Positions 7,693 through 51,307 of a stretch of 64,000 nt of DNA are shown one piece after another. This DNA is from Callorhinchus milii (Eukaryota). The position numbers and the translations under genes are program-made. The notes under the pieces were generated by a model. The model was not told where the DNA came from. It made no database searches and worked only from the letters and a program-made list of their open reading frames with translations. The stretch is from the NCBI RefSeq assembly GCF_018977255.1, contig NW_024704742.1, forward strand, positions 120,840,001 to 120,904,000, read 5' to 3'. Position 1 is the stretch's first letter; each line of letters begins with the position of its first letter.

Positions 7693-8008
7693 AATAATAA
7701 TAATAATCCTTGCATTTGATATAGCACTTTTCACGTCGGGAGGACGTCCCAAAGCGCTTCACAGAACACACTGTAAAGTGAATTGACTGTATATTTGTTG
7801 GCGAACGCGGCTGCCAATTGCGCACAGTAATGTCCCACAAACAGTCGTAGATTGAAAATGACCAATTTATTATTGTTTTTGGTTTTGGAGGGATTATTAT
7901 TAGGCGTGTGGAGTAAGGAAACTTGCCCAAGGTTTCGCCCTGCCTGGAATTGAACTCAGGTCTCTCACTTGCAAAGTGAGTGCTCTAACCACTGAGCTAC
8001 AGGACTCC
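7693..8008 (-). mobile_element. Full-length tRNA-derived SINE (short subfamily)
   Basis: Minus-strand head GGAGTCCTGTAGCTCAGTGGTTAGAGC with A box, B box GTTCAATTCC, TGC anticodon loop, L2-type tail and (ATT)n. Confidence 0.93.
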
Positions 8009-8010
8009 AC

Positions 8011-9010
8011 AAGGCAACGGGCACTGTTGTGAGGAGAGAGGAGAGAGAGGTAGGGGCGTGCAGAGGAGTGGAGGGATTTGAAGACAAGAGTGAGATCTTG
8101 AAGTCGATCCTCTCTGGACAGGCAGCCAGTACAGTCTGGCAAGGACTGGGGTAATTGGGGAGTGGAGTTTGGTGCGGGTAAGAGTGCGGGCGGCGGAGTT
8201 TTGTATGACCTGGATTTTATGGATTGTAGTGGAGGGGAGACCGGCGAGGAGGGCATTTGAATAGTCCAGCCAGGAGGTGACAAAGGTATGGACCAGGGTT
8301 TCAGAGGCTTTTGGAGTGAGGTATTGGCGGAGACAGGCAATGCGTTAGAGGTGGAAGAAAGCGGTGCTGGTGAGGGACCGGATGTGGAGGAGGAAGGATA
8401 ATTGGTGGTCGAACCTGAACCTTAGGTTGCGTACGGATTCAGAGTTTTAGGGGAGGTCAGGTAGGTGGAGGAGGTGAGAACTGTGTGATTTTAGACGTTG
8501 ACGAGATCCAAAGAGTATGGCTTCCATCTTATCAACGTTCAGCTGAAGGAAATTTGTGCTCATCCAGCTCCTGATGTCTGACAGGCAGGCTGACAGAACA
8601 TCAGGGGACTGGGGTTCGCAAAGTGAGGTGGAAAAATAGAGTTGGGTGTCACCTGCATACATGTCGAAATGTACCCCATGTCTGCGGACGACATCCCCAA
8701 GAGGGAGTATATAGATCAGAAAGAGGAGGGGGCCAAGGACGGATCTGCAGGTACCGGGTGAGAGCGGGAGGAGAAGCCATTTGTGCAGATGTACTGCTGG
8801 CGGTTCGTGAGGTAGGACTCGAACCAGGCGAGTGTGGTCCCACTGAGGTGGATGACGGAGGAAAGGTGATGGAGGAGGATGGCGTAATCAACTGTCGAAA
8901 GCGGCGGAGAGGTCCAGGAGGACAAGGAGGCAGAGGGAGCCCTGGTCACAGATAGAGAGGATGTCATTTGAGACGTTCACAAGCGAAGTCTCTGTACTGT
9001 GGGCAGGGCG
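8011..9010 (-). mobile_element. L2 LINE RT/ORF2 fragment
   Basis: HSTETSLVNVSNDILSICDQGSLCLLVLLDLSAAFD; MYAGDTQLY...SWMSTNFLQLNVDKME. Confidence 0.9.
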
Positions 9011-17250: not shown

Positions 17251-18232
17251 ACAACAACAACAAAATTACATTTATAGAACGCCTTTCATTTCAGGAGGAC
17301 GTCCCAAAGCGCTGAAGTCAGGTGTTGGGGCCCGAGCATGGGGGAGGGGTGGTGTAGGGATGGGGGAAGGCAGAGAGGTGGGAGGGAGACCAAAGGCACA
17401 GTCGAAGAGAAGGGTCTTGAGACTGGCCTTGAAGGATGCAAGGAAGGAAGCGAGGAGAAGGGACTGTGGAATAGAATTCCAGAGTGTGGGGGCAGAGAGG
17501 TTGAAAGCCCGGCCACTGATGGTAGGGCGGGTCAGGAGCGAGACATGGAGCAGGCCGGAGCCCGATGAGCGGAGGGAGTGGGCAGGTTGGTAGGGAATCA
17601 GCAGGTCAGAGAGGTAGGATGGGGCAACATAACATGACATGTAGGAGCAGGAGTAGGCCATTCAGCTCTTCGAGCCTGCCCCGCCATTCAATCGTGGCTC
17701 ATCTTGGAGTCCTGTAGCTCAGTGGTTAGAGCACTCGCTTTGCAAGTGAGAGACCTGAGTTCAATTCCAGGCAGGTCAGGGCGAAACCTGAGCAAGTTTC
17801 CTTACTCCACACACAGCCTAATAATAATCCCTCCAAAACCAAAAACAATAATAAATTGGTCATTTTCAATCCACGACTGTCTGTGGGACATTGCTGTGCG
17901 CAATTGGCTGCCGCGTTCGCCCACAAATATACAGTCAATTCACTTTACAGTGTGTTCTGTGAAGCGCTTTGGGACGTCCTCCCGACGTGAAAAGCGCTAT
18001 ATCAAATGCAAGGATTATTATTATTATTATCTTCTAATCTAACTCCAGCTAATAACCTAATGCAACGCCATGGATGGCCTTAAAGGTGAGGACGAGGATC
18101 TTGAACTCAATCCTCTGGGGGATGGGGAGCCAGTGGAGTCGGGTGAGGGTGTGAGTGATGGGGTCACGGAGCCTGGTGTGTGAGAGTACACGAGCTGCAG
18201 AGTTTTGGATGATCTGCAGCTTGTGAAGGGAA
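17251..18232 (-). mobile_element. L2 LINE 3' portion split by a CR1 tail and a SINE
   Basis: L2 sequence stops at ggggcaac (17628) and resumes at gcaacgccatgg (18062). Confidence 0.85.
17706..18030 (+). mobile_element. Full-length tRNA-derived SINE (short subfamily)
   Basis: Intact A and B boxes and tail; flanked by an atctt duplication at 17701-17705 and 18029-18033. Confidence 0.95.
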
Positions 18233-24855: not shown

Positions 24856-24900
24856 AATGCACTAAAAATTGTGTCTGCACAACCTTGTTAATGCACTAAA

Positions 24901-26125
24901 CCTTGAGTGGTTTAGGTCGTACCTCTCCCACCGTCTTCACTTTGTTTGTACGAACGGCTTTTCCTCCGGTCCCCGCACTGTCTCGTGCGGTGTCCCTCAG
25001 GGCTCTGTCCTCGGTCCCCTCCTCTTCACCCTCTATATGCTCCCCCTCGGTGACATCATCCGCAGACATGGGGTTAACTTCCACATGTATGCGGATGACA
25101 CCCAACTCTACCTTTCCTCCTCTACCCTCAACTCCACGACCACCGATGTCCTGACAGCTGCCTGTCTGACATTGAGTCCTGGACGAGAGACAACTTTCTT
25201 CAGCTCAACGTGCGTAAAACTGAGGCCCTCCTGATTGGCTCATGTCAGCGCCTCCGCACCTCTGGCGCTGACAGCATCAGCATCCAAGGCTGCACTCTCC
25301 ACCTCTCAAAGCCAGTCAGGAACCTCGGCGTTCTGTTCGACCCTGAGCTGTCCTTTCTCCCTCATACCCGCGCCACAACTGGCACCGCCTTCCATCCCTC
25401 CGGAACATCGCCAGACTACGGCACTACCTCACCCCTCACGCTGCTGAAACACTGGTCCACGCCTTTATCACCTCAAGGCTGGACTATGGGAACTCTCTCC
25501 TCGCCGGCCTTCCCGGCACCTCCCTCCACAAGCTGCAGGTCATTCAGAACTCTGCAGCTCGTGTACTGTCCCGCACCAGGCTTCGGGACCACATCACTCC
25601 CACCCTCGCTCGCCTCCACTGGCTCCCCATCCCCCAGAGGATCGAATTCAAGATCCTCATCCTCACCTACAAGGCCATTCACGGCCTCGCTCCCTCCTAC
25701 CTCTCCAACCTACTATCCCCTACCTACCTGCCCGTACCCTCCGTTCCTCTGGCTCCGGTCTGCTCCACACCCCCGCCCCAACCGCCCTACCATCGGTGGC
25801 CGGGCCTTCAGCCTCTCAGCCTCTAGGCTCTGGAACTCTATCCCCCAGTGCCTTCGCCGCCTCCTCCCTTTCCTCCTTCAAGGCCGGTCTCAAAACCTTT
25901 CTCTTTGACGGTGCCTTCAGCTCCCCTCTCGACTCTCTACCCCCTCCTCACTCACTCCCTTCCCTCCCCTCACCCTGACCATTTCCCCCCTCCTCGCTCC
26001 CTCCTTCCCTCCCCTCACCCTGACCATTTCCCCCCTGCTCGGGTCCTGACCCAACTGTACAGCGCCTTGGGACGTCCTCCTGACGTGAAAGGCGCTCTAT
26101 AAATGGAATCTTGTTGTTGTTGTTG
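24901..26125 (+). mobile_element. L2 LINE, 5'-truncated, RT domain to 3' tail
   Basis: [41 protein letters not shown]; tail hairpin and (TTG)n. Confidence 0.96.
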
Positions 26126-29034: not shown

Positions 29035-29821
29035 CAAACGTACTGCAAAGCGGAAAGGGATGTCAATAATGAACCTCATGATGTGGAATCGGCTATTTTA
29101 GAGGAAAAAGCCATCTGGCACGTGCAAAAACTGCTTGCACGCATGCACATTGAATGAAGTCCACCGAGCAACCACGTAAAATGTGAATTTGTGCTGCAGT
29201 TGAATTGTATTAAACTGATGATGCACTATAACTGCCATTTATCTAGTGAAGGCTCAAACTTGTGCTGTTGGATGGTCAAATGACCAAGTTGTGACTATCC
29301 TCTTTGGTAGGAGGAGACGGGCAAAGAGAAAGTATTAGACACAGGCTGGCAAGCACCAAGGCTTGGGGACCCCAGAGTTTTGGTTGGGATACTGCTGGAG
29401 TTTAAACAACTGAACCCACGTTGCTTACCATTGCAAACATCGTCAGACAAGCTCTCCACTGCTTGTCCAATTAGGACCATCATACCAACTAGTTTGGCTT
29501 TCTGGCTTAACAGGAATAAGTAGAAAGAATCCCTCAAGTGACTGGTCTGCTCTTCAAAGTCCTACCGACGAGCTAGTATTGCAGATCCACCTGGCTCAGG
29601 ACTACCTAGATGGCCACAGAAGATTGACACAATTGCAGTGTTTTGTTACCAAGATAAGACATCTTGGAACCAGCTCAACCCCTAGGAAACCCTGTTTAAG
29701 AATGATAGTGATAATAATAATCCTTATATTTGATATAATGCCTTATCAGGTCTTTCAGACGTTTCAAAGCGCTTCACATAATATGCTGTGAAGTGAATTG
29801 ACAGGACATTTTGTTTTAAGG

Positions 29822-30090
29822 TTTTAAGGACTAACAGAGAGGGGGAGGCAGGGCAAGGAAGACAAATGAGAAATGGGATAGATGAAATGGGGTTGTCCTC
29901 TGCTGCATTTTCTATTTTGTCTTCCTTGCCCTGACTCCTTCCTCGCTGTTAGTGCTTAAAAGCCTCTCCCTCCCAACATGCCCCAGTTCTGACGAAGGGT
30001 CATGGACCCGAAACGTTGACTCACTTTCCTTTCTCCATAGATGCTGCCTGACCTACTGAGTGTTCCCAGCGACTTCTGTTTTTGTTTTGC
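29822..30090 (+). mobile_element. Penelope-like element remnant (pLTR with inverted 5' arm) carrying a hammerhead motif
   Basis: About 55-bp inverted arms at 29822-29875 and 29906-29961, then a hammerhead core and a shared downstream tail gatgctgcctgacct...ttctgtttttgtttt. Confidence 0.7.
29985..30021 (+). ncRNA. Minimal type I hammerhead ribozyme motif (Penelope type)
   Basis: agtt-CTGACGA-a-GGGTC(atg)GACCC-GAAA-CGTT-gact: core, perfect 5-bp helix II, palindromic helix III, 4-bp helix I. Confidence 0.75.
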
Positions 30091-31041
30091 ATTTATAATG
30101 TATTCAATAGTATGATGTGGATTCACCATGCCCAGAACTAATTTTAAGAACAACCAGATAACATTTAAAAAATGCCAATTAATTTTGGAAAGACTTCCGA
30201 AAGATACCAATAAACTATTTTTTTATGAAACTGCAGCAGTACAGGGAAAGTGAGTGCAGTGTGTCATATAAATAAAAGAAAATCTCCCACAGGAAGGTAA
30301 GAGACCCAGCAGTGAAAATAACTGCAAGCAGCATGAGCTATTTGTACAATATTTACCCTCTCTTAATGTGTGATCAATGCAGGCTGTATGTTTACTTGCA
30401 GCACTGACCTGCACTCTTTGCTCCCTCAGCTCCTGTTGAGTCTTGGCAATCACACTGCCAAGGCCCAAAGGTTGTGTAGGAATCAGTACCACAAGAATAC
30501 AAATTGTGTTTCAGTGAGATTGATAAGACATTGCTGAAGTTAAAATCTTCAAAAGGAATGGTTATACACAGCTGGTTATTTTCCTCCACCCTATTTGTGC
30601 ATGTGAATACTCCATTATGGAGTTAGTCCGGAGGATTAAACACGGGATGTTCATCTCAATCTAATGTCATTTGTGATTTACAATTACAGCTCCTCGAGAC
30701 AGATCTAATAATAGGCACCTGTCTCATGGAGGCTTTGTTAACCCAGTAAGAGATTATATGGGGCAGGTCTATATATCTGGACATTAAGCAACATGAAATC
30801 ACTTTACTCCAGATTCTTCCACAGACAAATCACAGCGCGATCTAATTTCCAACATGCAACTGGATTTGCAAACTGGATTTGTTGTGTTGCTTGGAACTTC
30901 CAGAGTGCAACTTTTAGTGTGGAATATTCAGTCAAATGTGAATCCCAAGTCAGCAAAGTCTGAATATTGTCATGCAAGCAAAACAGCAGCAAGAAACAGC
31001 GAAAAGTAGCTACTTAAAAAAAGACATACTGCTATATTTAT

Positions 31042-31182
31042 GAAAATAAGGCAAAATACTGCAGATGCTGGAAAGAGTTCTGACGAAAGGTCATCGAGCT
31101 GAAACGTTAACCCACTTTCCCTTCTCCATAGTTGCTGCCTGACCTGCTGAGGCTTCCCAGTGACTTATGTTTTTATTTCTGC
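31042..31182 (+). mobile_element. Penelope-derived unit with hammerhead motif (copy 2)
   Basis: gagtt-CTGACGA-a-aggtc(atc)gagct-GAAACGTT-aacc at about 31075-31112; same downstream tail as copy 1. Confidence 0.7.
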
Positions 31183-31489
31183 TACATTTATGGTTGGGAG
31201 ATCAAATATTTGAGTATTTACTTTTTTTGAAAAACATATCCTGGAAGTTTTGCCCCTCTCCCTAAACAGGTCACTAAGTTACAACTGATTACTGTACAGA
31301 AGTGTGTTATGCACTCCCCCTGAGAACTGTTACTCTGAATTCTGTTTAAGTTTCCCTAGTTTTCACTGCTTTGTACAGTGTTAAATCTGTCTTTGGGAGT
31401 TTACACTGATTGTAATTCCATTTTCGTTTTTGTAAACCTTTGACTTTAAATTTAGATTAAACAGAACAACAAAGTTCCCATTGGCCCAC

Positions 31490-31784: not shown

Positions 31785-32100
31785 GGAGTTCTGTGGCTCA
31801 GTGGTTAGAGCACTCGCCATGCAAGCGAGACACCTGGGTTCAATTCCAGGCAGGGCGAAACCTTGGGCAAGTTTCCTTACTCCACACACCTAATAATAAT
31901 CCCTCCAAAACGAAACAATAAATTGGTCATTTTCAATCCACGACTGTTTGTGGGACACTGCTATGCGCAATTGGCTGCCGCGTTTCGCCCACAAATATAC
32001 AATCAATTCATTTTGCAGTCTATTCTGTGAAGCGCTTTGAGACTTCTAGAAGACGTGAAAAGCACTATATCAAATTCAAGGATTATTATTATTATTATTA
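31785..32100 (+). mobile_element. Full-length tRNA-derived SINE (short subfamily)
   Basis: tRNA head with A and B boxes; tail loop variant ctagaa; (ATT)n. Confidence 0.93.
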
Positions 32101-34494: not shown

Positions 34495-34823
34495 GGAGTC
34501 CTGTAGCTCAGTGGTTAGAGCACTCGCTTTGCAAGTGAGAGACCTGAGTTCAATTCCAGGCACAGGGCGAAACCTTGGGCAAGTTTCCTTACTCCACACG
34601 CCTAATAATAATCCCTCCAAAACCAAAACAAAAGCAATAATAAATTGGTCATTTTTAATCTACGACTGTTTGTGGGACATTGCTGTGCGCAATTGGCTGC
34701 CGCGTTCGCCCACAAATATACAGTCAATTCACTTTACAGTGTGTTCTGTGAAGCGCTTTGGGACATCTCCCGACGTGAAAAGCGCTATATCAAATATAAG
34801 GATTATTATTATTATTATTATTA
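34495..34823 (+). mobile_element. Full-length tRNA-derived SINE (short subfamily)
   Basis: Nearly identical to 17706-18030. Confidence 0.95.
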
Positions 34824-38493: not shown

Positions 38494-38640
38494 GCCTCCA
38501 GTAATTGAATAGATCCAATAACAGAATTGGAAGCCCTCTCTGATTCTCCAGTCACTTGGTCAATCATCTCATGGTGGTTTTTAGAACCTCTTCAAACCTT
38601 TTCCTTGAAGAAGTTCTGCTCTTCTCTTCGACATGACTTT

Positions 38641-38747
38641 CAGTTCTGACGAAAGGTCATGGACCCGAAACATTGATTCGCTTTCCTTTTTCCACAGAAG
38701 CTGCCTGACCTGCTGAGTGTTCCCAGTGACTTCTGTTTTTGTTTTAG
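38641..38747 (+). mobile_element. Penelope-derived unit with hammerhead motif (copy 3)
   Basis: cagtt-CTGACGA-a-aggtc(atg)gaccc-GAAACATT-gatt; CpG-decayed helix III; same downstream tail. Confidence 0.7.
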
Positions 38748-39499
38748 AACCTTGCTGCAACGTATGCCTATAAAATAGTCACTACACTTGGCAGAAATTA
38801 CCTGTGAAGTGCTTTGAGACATTTCAATGTGATACAACAAAGATAATTATGAAATACAATGATAATTATCGTTATTTCCAGATTGTTTTGCCAAATTTAA
38901 AAAATATAAAACGACAAACCATTTAAAAAAATGATATTCCTTCACATATGTTTCAGCTACAGAAGAATTGAAAATCCAATGAAGAAGGTCAGATGGCTCC
39001 TTTATCCAATTTCAATATCAAATTGCTTGAATTTCAATCTGTTCTACACAACTTATTTGCCTTTTGAATTGAAAACTTTCTCTGAAGATATCATACATAA
39101 ACTAAATGTGTACTTTCCGACATGTTCAATGCTGGTACAAATTAATAGCATTTACTTTTTTTATTAATCCAATGGACAGATACTTTGGTTTGAAAAGCAG
39201 ATTTAATTTCAAACAATCTTAGCTCAGTGAAGGAGTAAGCGAACAAGAGCGAGAGGGAGAGAGAGAGAGAGATCAGGACAACTGATCTGTACTATCCTGA
39301 AAATATTCAATGAAAACACAAACTCAACACCACGTTTCAGGGTGAATTGGGGTTGGAGGATTGATGAAGGCTTTATGTGCCTAGATCAACCATAGCCCTG
39401 ATTATGATCAATATCTTACAAATCTCATAAACATCAAAACAGCGATGCTTATTTTCTATTCATTTAAAAATCCACGCAGTTCTACTGTTAAACTGAAAT

Positions 39500-42418: not shown

Positions 42419-42729
42419 TAATAATATCCTTGCATTTGATATAGCGCTTTTCACGTCTTCTAGATGTCTCAAAGCGCTTCACAGAATATGCTGTAAAGTG
42501 AATTGACTGTATACTTGTGGGCGAAATGCAGCAGCCAATTGTGCACAGCAGTGTCCCACAAACAGTCGTGGATTGAAAATGACCAATTTATTATTGTTTT
42601 TGTTTTTGGAGGGATTATTATTAGGTGTGTGGAGTAAGGAAACTTGCCCAAGGTTTCGCCCTGCCGGGAATTGAATCCAGGTGTCTCGCTTGCAAGGCGA
42701 GTGCTCTAACCACTTAGCTACAGGACTCC
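42419..42729 (-). mobile_element. Full-length tRNA-derived SINE (short subfamily)
   Basis: Reverse-complement head ending ggactcc at 42729; tail loop variant ctagaa. Confidence 0.93.
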
Positions 42730-43547: not shown

Positions 43548-44351
43548 GGAGTCCAGTAGTTCAGTGGTTATAGCACTCGCCTCGCTAGCGACAGGACCTG
43601 GGTTCAATTCCCAGGTGTGGCGAAACATTAGACAAGTTTTCTTACTTCATACACTTCTGTTTACCTAGCAGTAAGTAGGAACTCAGTTGTTATTGCTTTG
43701 GTAGATCGCTTTTCTGGGGGGTAAGAATCCCTTTCAAAATAAATAAATCTTCTTCTATCTATCTTATATATATCTATACTAATAAAACAACAATGTCTGT
43801 CTGCGCTTCAAGAAAGATTTGAACCTCATTGGAAAGATCTTGCACCTGGGAGTGGCATGGGCATATTTGTTTTCGCATATCTCCTATTGCTCATGAGGAA
43901 TTTTCACTTTTGCATTTTTCACTGCAGTTACACCTGGTTGCCACCGAGTCAAAGTGGCGCTGTGGCATTGTGCGTCACAGAGCGTCTACGTATGCACGTA
44001 CATACTGCAGTTACACCTGGTGACCGCATCCTCCCAATAGGAGTCCTCCCATAGGAGTCCTCCCAGATATGCATAGATAAAGATGAAATGTCTGTCTGTG
44101 TCAGTCTACAATCCATACTGGATCCTTTGGTTGCAAGCGTAGCTGCAATGGGTACAACTAGTAAAAAATAAAATAATAATAATTTGGTCACTCAATCCAC
44201 GGCACTGATGTGGGGCACTGCTGTGCGCAATTGGCTGCATCTTTTCGCCCACATAATATAGTCAATTCACTTTACAATATATTCTGTGAAGCGCTTTGAG
44301 TTGTCTCAAAGACCTGATAAGGTGCTATATCAAATCCAAGGGTTATTATTT
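43548..44351 (+). mobile_element. tRNA-derived SINE (long subfamily) split by a Helitron
   Basis: SINE head and middle at 43548-43747, body and tail at 44162-44351; colinear with intact copies once the insert is removed. Confidence 0.88.
43748..44161 (+). mobile_element. Non-autonomous Helitron (414 bp)
   Basis: Starts TC after an A and ends CTAG before a T, with no distinct TSD; subterminal hairpin ttgc-a-agc-gta-gct-gcaa at 44131-44148; 5' tctatactaataaaa motif. Confidence 0.8.
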
Positions 44352-44805
44352 GTTTATAGGCTCCAGTGCTGCGCAGGGGGAGCATTGACTCATTGGAATT
44401 GGAACACCATCAACTGGGTCATCTGTCACATTTGTGGTAAAATCCATCTCTCTAGTATTGGTCTACAAAGCCACCTGAATACCCACTACAGATGAGGTCA
44501 TCTTAAAACTCGAATCCCCTTCTGTTTTTTATTGTTTGTTTTTTAATAGCTGAAGAACAATCTTACTTGATTATCAAGGGATTGTCTATTATATAAGAGG
44601 TATAAAGGAACAAATTCAAATAAATATAATTAAAATTGTTATTTCCAAGTTAACATGTTTAGACAAGATATCATCATAACAATTAATGTATTGGTAATGT
44701 ACAACGTTGCTAGAGCATGGTAATATGGGTAACTTCAATGTCTCAACTTCCAGAAAGCATTAAGATATTCATAGAAGTCTTATAACAAAGCTGAACATTA
44801 CTTCA

Positions 44806-44900
44806 CAATTTGATAAAAGGTCAAACTTGAAGTGTTAACTTATTTTCCTCCTTCAGATTTTGATCAACCAGTTGTGCATTCTTCTGTTTTTATTTTTTCT
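44806..44900 (+). mobile_element. Heavily decayed Penelope/hammerhead unit (copy 4)
   Basis: ttgataaaaggtcaaacttgaagtgttaact...cttctgtttttatttt is colinear with copies 1-3, with the catalytic core mutated. Confidence 0.5.
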
Positions 44901-48115: not shown

Positions 48116-49235
48116 TAAGAACATAAGAACATAAGAATTAGGAGCAGGAGTAGGCCATTTGGCCCTTCGTGCCTGCTCCACCATTCAATAAGATCATGGC
48201 TGATCTTCTCACCTAACTCTGATTACCTGCCCTATCCCCATATCCCCTAATCCCTCTATTTTTCAAGAATCTATCAGTCTCAGCCTTGAAAATGTTCAAG
48301 GACTGAGCATCTACAGCCTTCTGGGGTAGTGAATTCCATTAGTTCACTACCCTCTGAGTGAAGAAATGTTTCCTCAACTCTGTTCTAAAAGGCTGACCCT
48401 TAATTTTAAGACTGTGACCCCTGGTTATAGATTCTCCTACCAGGGGAAACAGTCCCTCAGTGTCTACTGTATCCAGCCCTTTAAGAATCTTATAAGTTTC
48501 AATAAGATCCCCCTAATTCTTCTGTACTCTAGAGAATACAGCCCTAGTTTATTCAGCCTATCCTCAAAGGTCAGTCCCCTCATCCCAGGAACTAACCGAG
48601 TGAATCTACGCTGCACCCCCACTAGGGCAAGTATGTCCTTTTTTAAATAAGGAGACCAAAACTGCACACAATACTCTAGGTGCGGTCTCACCAAAGCCCT
48701 ATACAGTTGCAGCAAGACTTCCCTACTCTTATATTCTAAACCTTTCGAAATGAACGCTAACATGCCGTTCACCTTCTTAGTTGCTTGCTGCACCTGCAAA
48801 CTAACTTTTTGGGACTGGTGTACAAGGACACCCAAATCCCTTTGAATATTAACACTATCTAACTTCTCCCCTTCCAGAAAATAATCTGTTCTTTTATTCT
48901 TGCTACCTAGGTGAATAATTTCACACTTGCTAAGATTGAATTCCATCTGCCACCTACTTGCCCACTCCCCGAGCCTATCTATATCTTGTTGCAATCTTTT
49001 TGCATCATCCTGAGAGCTCACTCTGCTACCTAGTTTAGTATCATCCGCCAATTTAGACACATTACATTAAATGTCCTCGTCCAGATCATTGATGGTAAAT
49101 AGCTGAGGCCCAAGCACTGATCCTTGTGGCACTCCATTAGTTACATCCTGCCAATTCGAGAATGATCCGTTTATCACTACTCTCTGCTTTCTACCCAATA
49201 GCCACTCTTCTATCCATGTTAATATTTTCCCATTA
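48116..49235 (-). mobile_element. CR1 LINE, RT domain to 3' tail
   Basis: [42 protein letters not shown]; tail (taagaaca)n on the + strand. Confidence 0.96.
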
Positions 49236-49369
49236 AGAAGATTTGGAACCAATATGAATCAATCCCGCATCAGTGCACAGCAGGTAGTACCATATCACAG
49301 ATCTCCATATAATGTGAGAATACCCAATGTACACACTGACCCCTCCACAAGTTGTTGAGCCATAGACTA

Positions 49370-49844: not shown

Positions 49845-50235
49845 CTGGAGCTGGTTAGGGTTGCTGGGGCTGGTTCGGGGTTGCTGGAGCTAGGTCGGGG
49901 TTGCTAGAGCTGGTTCGGGGTTGCTGGAGCTGGTTCGGGGTTGCTGGAGCTGGTTCGAGGTTGCTGGAGCTGGTTCGGGGTTGCTGGAGCTGGCTCGGAG
50001 TTGCTGGAGCTGGCTCGGGGTTGCTGGAGCTGGCTCGGAGTTACTGGGGCTTGTTCGGAGTTGCTGGAGCTAGGTCGGGGGTTGCTAGAGCTGGTTTGGG
50101 GTTGCTGGAGCTGGTTCGGGGTTGCTGGAGCTGGTTCGGGGTTGCTGGAGCTGGTTCGGAGTTACTGGGGCTTGTTCGGGGTTAATGGGGCTTGTTCGGG
50201 GTTTTTGTTGGGGCTTGTTCGCTGTTGCTGGGGTT
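49845..50235. repeat. G-rich minisatellite, 20-bp unit
   Basis: About 19 tandem copies of GGGGTTGCTGGAGCTGGTTC, decaying at the right end. Confidence 0.95.
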
Positions 50236-50946: not shown

Positions 50947-51307
50947 GGAGTCCTGCAGTTCAGTGGTTAGAGCACTTGACTCGCAAGCGAGAGACCTGGG
51001 TTTGATTCCCAGCAGGGCAAAATGTTGGGCAAGTTTCCTTACTCCACACGCGTCCGTTTACCTATCAGTAGATAGGAACCCAGTTGTTAGTTGATTGGTG
51101 GATTGCTTTTTCGGGGGAAATATTTCCTAAAAAAAATTGGTCACTCAATCCACCACTGTTTGTGGGACACTGCTGTGCTCAATTGGCTGCCGCGTTTTGC
51201 TCACAAAATATAGTAAATTCACTTTACAGCGTATTCTGTGAAGCCCATTGAGACGTCTCGACGACATGATAAGGCACTATATCAAATGCAAGGATTATTA
51301 TTATTAT
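50947..51307 (+). mobile_element. Full-length tRNA-derived SINE (long subfamily)
   Basis: tRNA head, internal gtttacctatcagtagataggaaccc segment, tail. Confidence 0.92.

Follow-up and report, generated by a model that had tools for sequence, protein, structure and literature searches.

The question raised by this locus is whether a hammerhead-like motif in a 64-kb stretch of genomic DNA (64,000 nucleotides, here called the window) is a genuine self-cutting RNA motif, what kind of element carries it, and whether it still acts where it now lies. The initial annotation placed a minimal hammerhead ribozyme at this point, and the letters are as it described.

29985..30021 (+): copy 1, minimal type I hammerhead motif, predicted cut after 30017 (triplet GUU), identified by structural descriptor and published consensus

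Helix I pairs 29985-29988 with 30018-30021 (A-U, G-C, U-A and U.G), and its U.G pair adjoins the cut site. The core CUGACGA occupies 29989-29995 and is followed by an extra A at 29996. Helix II joins 29997-30001 to 30005-30009 through five Watson-Crick pairs, including G10.1-C11.1; the GAAA box (30010-30013) and the palindromic ACGU (30013-30016) follow. All core positions are thus intact and helix II is perfect. The structural descriptor finds this single site in the 64-kb window and none in 500 block shuffles, and the self-cutting RNA motif of copy 1 is confirmed as genuine. A loose sequence pattern has five matches in the window against 0.84 expected, two of which (11787 and 45330) are not family copies. 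No hammerhead model appears among the 20 Rfam matches up to E=5, presumably because the motif lacks helix III, and the result is in that sense unsurprising. The stability of the motif's fold is unremarkable (z -1.14), and searches of viral, metagenome and prokaryote collections with ribozyme patterns gave 0 matches. Translation from an ATG in loop II of copy 1 would end at a stop after 5 codons.

The consensus given for minimal hammerheads of Penelope-like elements (PLEs) has an extra base between 9 and 10.1, a G10.1-C11.1 pair and a palindromic 15.2-16.2 (PMC4209133). Copy 1 resembles this metazoan PLE form in its CUGANGA-H core, its G10.1-C11.1 pair, its short helix I, its palindromic 15.2-16.2 and the lack of a helix III loop. 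It departs from this form in the size of helix II, whose 5 bp and 3-nt loop are among the shortest, and in a G.U pair by the cut site.

Searching the window with copy 1 returns two clear relatives, and a fourth, probable copy lies farther downstream. All are on the same strand:

31076..31178 (+): copy 2, hammerhead and body, with A10.1-U11.1, a G.G in helix II and a mismatch in outer helix I
38642..38741 (+): copy 3, hammerhead and body, helix II closed by an A.C pair and helix III showing CpG decay (ACAU)
44806..44895 (+): copy 4, probable, much older and decayed, core lost, its significance varying with the query

Copy 2 aligns at about 31076-31179 (86% identity over about 104 nt, E 3e-31) and copy 3 at about 38641-38745 (91% identity over about 104 nt, E 8e-39). 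Copy 4 is the top non-copy window for all three queries, with an nhmmer E of 0.45; its score is reached by 0 of 60 shuffled windows with copy 2 as query, by 2 of 60 with copy 1 and by 24 of 60 with copy 3. Copy 4 is probably a family member, on a weak similarity. Two of the three further copies proposed by the initial annotation are therefore clear and the last is weak. Its reading of a helix II mismatch in copy 2 and of CpG decay in helix III of copy 3 holds, but it overlooked the outer helix I mismatch of the former and the A.C pair that closes helix II of the latter. Across the three clear copies the closing pair 10.1-11.1 is G-C, A-U and A.C in turn, and the palindrome ACGU, kept in copies 1 and 2, is ACAU in copy 3. 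The ribozyme and the downstream part, or tail, differ at similar rates (6/37 vs 9/67, 3/37 vs 6/67 and 7/37 vs 11/67), and the progressive decay seen by the annotation is an ordering of independent insertions. Covariation in helices I and II, which the annotation offered as a check, gives no signal above shuffles: the only 4 copies available hold one two-sided change, and 319 of 500 shuffles score as high.

The wider family was surveyed by aligning contigs from four public runs, one from this organism and three from relatives B, C and D, to positions 29870-31400. The numbers of contigs aligned were 11,883 for this organism and 24,801, 3,340 and 24,598 for the others, with nearly all of the summed depth on the repeats. 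The ratio of summed depth on the repeat to that on single-copy flank, 74,000-118,000, is no copy number, only a sign of high abundance. That the family is very abundant is supported by these contigs; extrapolated, the three clear copies of the 64-kb window would correspond to tens of thousands per gigabase. The initial annotation had proposed a very abundant non-autonomous family. The abundance stands, with thousands of contigs per organism, while non-autonomy is doubtful for reasons weighed below. Relatives B and D each supply one contig that crosses the left junction of copy 2, reaching 66 and 32 letters into the element, and the flanks differ from the window by about 12% (77/622 and 75/593 letters). 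Copy 2 therefore predates the split from these relatives.

The anatomy of the insertions is as follows, with the two halves of each target duplication on one line:

29809..29817 and 30080..30088: candidate 9-bp target duplication of copy 1 (null 0.13 in a 200-nt search)
29819..29875 (-): inverted 5' arm of copy 1, mirroring 29909-29965 with 49 of 57 columns identical
29893..29984 (+): pyrimidine-rich upstream pseudo-LTR sequence of copy 1, containing the direct arm of the hairpin (29909-29965)
30022..30088 (+): family body of copy 1, 3' of the ribozyme and without tail, ending at the family's first 3' end, with loose contig ends at 30082-30088
31029..31042 and 31179..31192: 14-bp target duplication of copy 2 with 1 mismatch (null 0.004-0.006 from 1000 random placements)
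31043..31074 (-): family tail in inverted orientation, opening the copy 2 insertion on its 5' side, 32 nt (about 36 nt with 4 linking bases)
38579..38589 and 38742..38752: 11-bp target duplication of copy 3 (null 0.019)
38590..38641 (+): 52 nt inside the copy 3 duplication, of which the last 11 nt or so could mirror the ribozyme start

The fixed unit is about 104 nt, the minimal hammerhead plus about 67 nt. This is close to the shared tail of about 70 nt in the initial annotation, but the inserted units are longer, since they include inverted pieces and target duplications. The arms of copy 1 form a 140-nt hairpin (fold z -9.73) that occurs once in the window. Contig pieces that start at 29893-29917 continue through the ribozyme in all four runs; the right arm of the hairpin is thus family sequence, and the left arm therefore an inverted piece of the same element. 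Rfam matches to miRNA precursors across 29803-29983 all fall below the gathering score and reflect this hairpin. In copy 1 a single nucleotide separates the left duplication from the inverted arm, and the right one overlaps the family's own T-rich end. For the target duplications of copies 1-3 no empty site was seen. The inverted 5' pieces vary from copy to copy, and the 52 nt of copy 3 do not align significantly with the arm upstream of copy 1. Those 52 nt fold into two small hairpins, one of which pairs with the ribozyme start.

Many family members carry a tail after 30087. Loose ends at this point occur in 275, 737, 135 and 577 contigs of the four runs and continue as the reverse complement of 31043-31074, while opposite-strand joints from 30087 to 31074 occur in 27, 25, 9 and 20 contigs. 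In other members the family sequence breaks off at 30081-30088 and gives way to unrelated flanks. There are thus two classes of 3' end, and between them lies an optional tail of about 36 nt, which within the window is found only at the inverted end of copy 2, where a single extra G at 31075 separates it from the copy proper. Fold-back members, in which 29985-29988 is joined on the opposite strand to 30025-30032, are present in relatives B, C and D. The right duplications at 30080-30088 and 38742-38748 resemble the family's own 3'-junction sequence, which suggests microhomology priming; priming by the PLE known as PAc (below) is described as non-homologous (Frangieh 2024, PMC11167929). A short fragment of the tail that an abundant SINE of the window shares with nearby LINE fragments (29707-29812, minus strand) abuts the left duplication of copy 1, having either been cut short there or received copy 1 at its edge.

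The copies thus show the hallmarks of PLEs: an inverted 5'-truncated piece (copies 1 and 2), an optional one-sided tail of about 36 nt and target duplications of 9-14 bp. Endonuclease-positive PLEs are described with an inverted 5'-truncated copy and an optional one-sided tail of 30-40 nt (Craig 2021, PMC8557442), and PLE insertions with a 31-nt tail and 8-10-bp duplications (Arkhipova 2013, PMC3846280); the one-sided tail is presented as a signature unique to PLEs (PMC8557442, PMC11167929). The copies here resemble endonuclease-positive insertions in 5' truncation, in the adjacent inverted piece, in the one-sided tail, in duplications of similar size and in occurring as solo pseudo-LTRs, and are unlike them, as described, in that most copies here seem to share a single 5' limit at helix I. 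No statement of a fixed 5' boundary in PLEs was found by literature search or in the portions of Craig 2021 and Arkhipova 2013 used here.

The closest counterpart in detail is the Poseidon element PAc of Anolis carolinensis, in which a tail lies between two internal start sites of reverse transcription, uncut RNA is the main template (PMC11167929) and ribozyme cleavage requires an element protein (Frangieh 2024, PMC11167929). As in PAc, a minimal hammerhead lies here about 100 nt upstream of two sites that bound a tail, and the whole uncut ribozyme is present in the copies. PAc differs in being intact, active and linked to an ORF. The 3' end region here is also U-rich on the sense strand where the start loop of PAc is AC-rich, which counts against the explanation we favour.

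From this resemblance in sequence and structure, membership of the family in the PLEs is very likely, and the Penelope-type assignment of the initial annotation agrees with the published metazoan hammerhead and with the anatomy of the insertions. The repeats are probably short, dead retro-insertions of the 3' end of a pseudo-LTR from an endonuclease-positive PLE. By published PLE biochemistry, the RT-GIY-YIG protein of the autonomous element would have nicked AT-rich DNA, reverse transcription would have begun internally on uncleaved RNA at the two sites that bound the tail, and the inverted piece would derive from a second or folded-back cDNA. Most cDNAs, we infer, stopped at the first bases of helix I, probably the beginning of the template. 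Cleavage by the ribozyme of the parent element would require dimerisation or the element protein.

The initial annotation also proposed to look for Penelope ORF partners, and none was found by protein searches or by Pfam in 352 of the 579 stop-to-stop ORFs (at least 45 aa) of the window, a sample made up of 147 of the 163 near the copies plus 205 of at least 60 aa, mostly farther off. No GIY-YIG match was among them. Pfam matches in the ORFs scanned include six RVT_1 fragments, all far from the copies. Broken LINE-type RVT_1 fragments lie at 262-1077, 8450-8887, 24866-25231 and 48467-49258; none adjoins a hammerhead copy. Protein searches with the sense frame over the unit gave 97 candidates, none passing; the frame through the tail, with X at one stop, gave no match; and the antisense frame gave 1 candidate, which did not pass. 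A full HMMER scan returned 3 matches, and the two inspected are unrelated tandem-repeat proteins. A pattern of 18-19 nt from the tail brought up 40 loci (best E 4e-4), which are treated as chance because there is little match beyond the seed and none convincingly spans ribozyme plus tail. An open frame from the ATG at 30041 (30041-30088) would run on through the tail, as represented by the inverted copy at 31043-31074; rotifer pseudo-LTRs likewise carry the first codons of an ORF (Arkhipova 2013, PMC3846280).

The 5' end of the family calls for its own account. Among the loose-end rows listed (24 of 1516), family 5' ends cluster at 29984-29987 in each of the four runs and none lies at the cut site, 30018; the copies keep the whole, uncut ribozyme. 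Upstream of the clustered ends, again among rows listed, there is no common sequence (agreement 0.34-0.37). Copies 2, 3 and 4 also start at the helix I boundary. Before helix I the summed depth of contigs amounts to 2-4% of its maximum. Some family contigs go back to 29893 or beyond, at least 90 nt upstream of the ribozyme. The boundary at 29985 fits the initiator YYANWYY, as do 1.2% of positions; part of this match is dictated by the ribozyme itself, and a splice acceptor would suit these bases as well. Helix I marks the 3' boundary of an intron in Drosophila Penelope (Cervera & De la Pena 2014, PMC4209133), where the start site lies 46 nt ahead of that intron (PMC2377424).

A possible, tentative extension of the favoured reading is that the copies of about 104 nt are run-off ("strong-stop") cDNAs from transcripts that start at the first base of helix I. 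PLE reverse transcriptase would start at the tail sites about 104 or about 140 nt downstream, reach the capped 5' end, copy the cap as an extra G and then integrate. An extra 5' G from cap copying is known in LINE insertions. Here the base just before the start is G in copy 2 and in 4 of the 6 tail-to-head junctions among those listed (12 of 242 rows). The probability of five G-preceded starts in seven is about 0.005 if they are independent, which they may not be, the six junctions all coming from one run. In two runs the family consensus has G as its last base ahead of 29985, where the window has C. Alternatively, the G may be peculiar to a subfamily and lengthen helix I through a pair with 30022, and the sharp 5' boundary would fit a separate master element equally well. 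Should run-off be right, a single ordinary PLE mRNA would give rise to tens of thousands of stubs, all of fixed length and headed by a ribozyme, with no non-autonomous master; the great excess of solo minimal hammerheads over full elements in animal genomes would be explained, and PLE transcription starts could be mapped from DNA alone. A word-matching literature search returned nothing on PLE run-off at helix I.

Such a master element is the substance of the main rival to short, dead insertions from a full PLE: a dedicated non-autonomous mini-element, a solo "retrozyme monomer" or a SINE-like unit of about 104-140 nt, would have come from a PLE pseudo-LTR and been propagated from its own masters by PLE proteins in trans. 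The low upstream depth and the piled 5' ends suit it, and solo retrozyme monomers derived from pseudo-LTRs are known in vertebrates, including one chondrichthyan (bioRxiv 10.64898/2026.07.22.740005). We nevertheless judge it unlikely. Longer copies, copy 1 among them, belong to the same family, with contigs reaching at least 90 nt upstream; the 5' inversions differ between copies; and the unit has no recognisable promoter of its own, Rfam finding no tRNA or other head on it. By definition, non-LTR retrozymes consist of tandem units, every one of which carries a ribozyme (same preprint). The copies here resemble them as short, non-coding type I hammerhead repeats related to pseudo-LTRs, and retrozyme monomers too are dispersed, but they stand solo, with duplications and inversions. 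Being non-tandem, they fall outside that definition: no tandem array covers any copy in the window, and the copies lie 1.1, 7.6 and 6.2 kb apart, with duplications of their own. Far less probable is an origin outside the PLEs, as a MITE or a piece of an unrelated SINE with an incidental hammerhead match. The failure to find a PLE ORF, the silence of Rfam on a hammerhead and the MITE-like look of the 140-nt hairpin would favour such an origin; set against it are the absence of descriptor matches in 500 shuffles, inverted arms that differ between copies where a MITE would have fixed terminal repeats, duplications of variable length (9-14 bp) and the one-sided tail described as unique to PLEs.

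It is likewise most improbable that copy 1 has been kept functional to cut a host or local transcript, for instance by dimerising with copy 2, its same-strand neighbour 1.1 kb downstream. Its intact core and perfect helix II, and the ACGU palindrome that it shares with copy 2, are what such a role would call for. By energy prediction, which ignores tertiary contacts and proteins, the copy 1 monomer instead pairs the core GACG with CGUU in an inactive rod (p 0.87-0.99), and co-folds of copy 1 with itself (-27.9 kcal/mol) and with copy 2 (-21.6 kcal/mol) favour structures other than a dimer held by helices II and III (-17.5 kcal/mol, helix I not counted). Activity is doubtful because the predicted rod sequesters the core and the sole near partner, copy 2, is damaged in helix II. 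As described in PMC4209133 (Cervera & De la Pena 2014), minimal hammerheads do not cleave as monomers and cleave at a low level as dimers, and 8 of 9 natural Xenopus dimers went uncut (bioRxiv 10.64898/2026.07.22.740005). The ribozyme part, moreover, changes as fast as the tail, and Pfam identifies no host exon in the ORFs scanned (352 of 579). The predicted folds make copy 1 probably inactive at this locus, which bears no sign of host function; the intactness reported by the initial annotation holds for the letters, and activity does not follow from it.

Read as probable short insertions from a PLE, these repeats add a lineage, apparently a cartilaginous fish to judge by the host's repeat content, to a motif class described in 2014, whose members are mostly single, dispersed, "probably related to truncated PLEs" and present in thousands per genome (PMC4209133). 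The part of the alignment in that paper examined here has no cartilaginous fish, and shark, skate and Callorhinchus are absent from its supplement as searched. A literature search found nothing joining Penelope, hammerhead and sharks or cartilaginous fish; retrozymes have been counted in one chondrichthyan (bioRxiv 10.64898/2026.07.22.740005). The useful part is the family anatomy, in which two fixed 3' ends match the published internal priming sites. Should the constant 5' end at helix I prove to be a cap site, it would provide a simple mechanism for the flood of solo minimal hammerheads.

Other repeats share the window. Seven tRNA-like heads (Rfam RF00005), at 7935-8006, 17708-17779, 31787-31858, 34502-34562, 42656-42727, 43557-43614 and 50949-51020, belong to an abundant SINE whose 3' part shares an AAT-repeat tail with nearby LINE fragments; we take these AAT-tailed SINE and LINE sequences to be of L2 type. 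A weak C2H2 zinc-finger match at 44262-44492 (E 0.0068), about 300 nt upstream of copy 4, is presumably the end of a LINE ORF. A minisatellite at 49845-50203 comprises 18 copies of a 20-nt unit with 88% matches.
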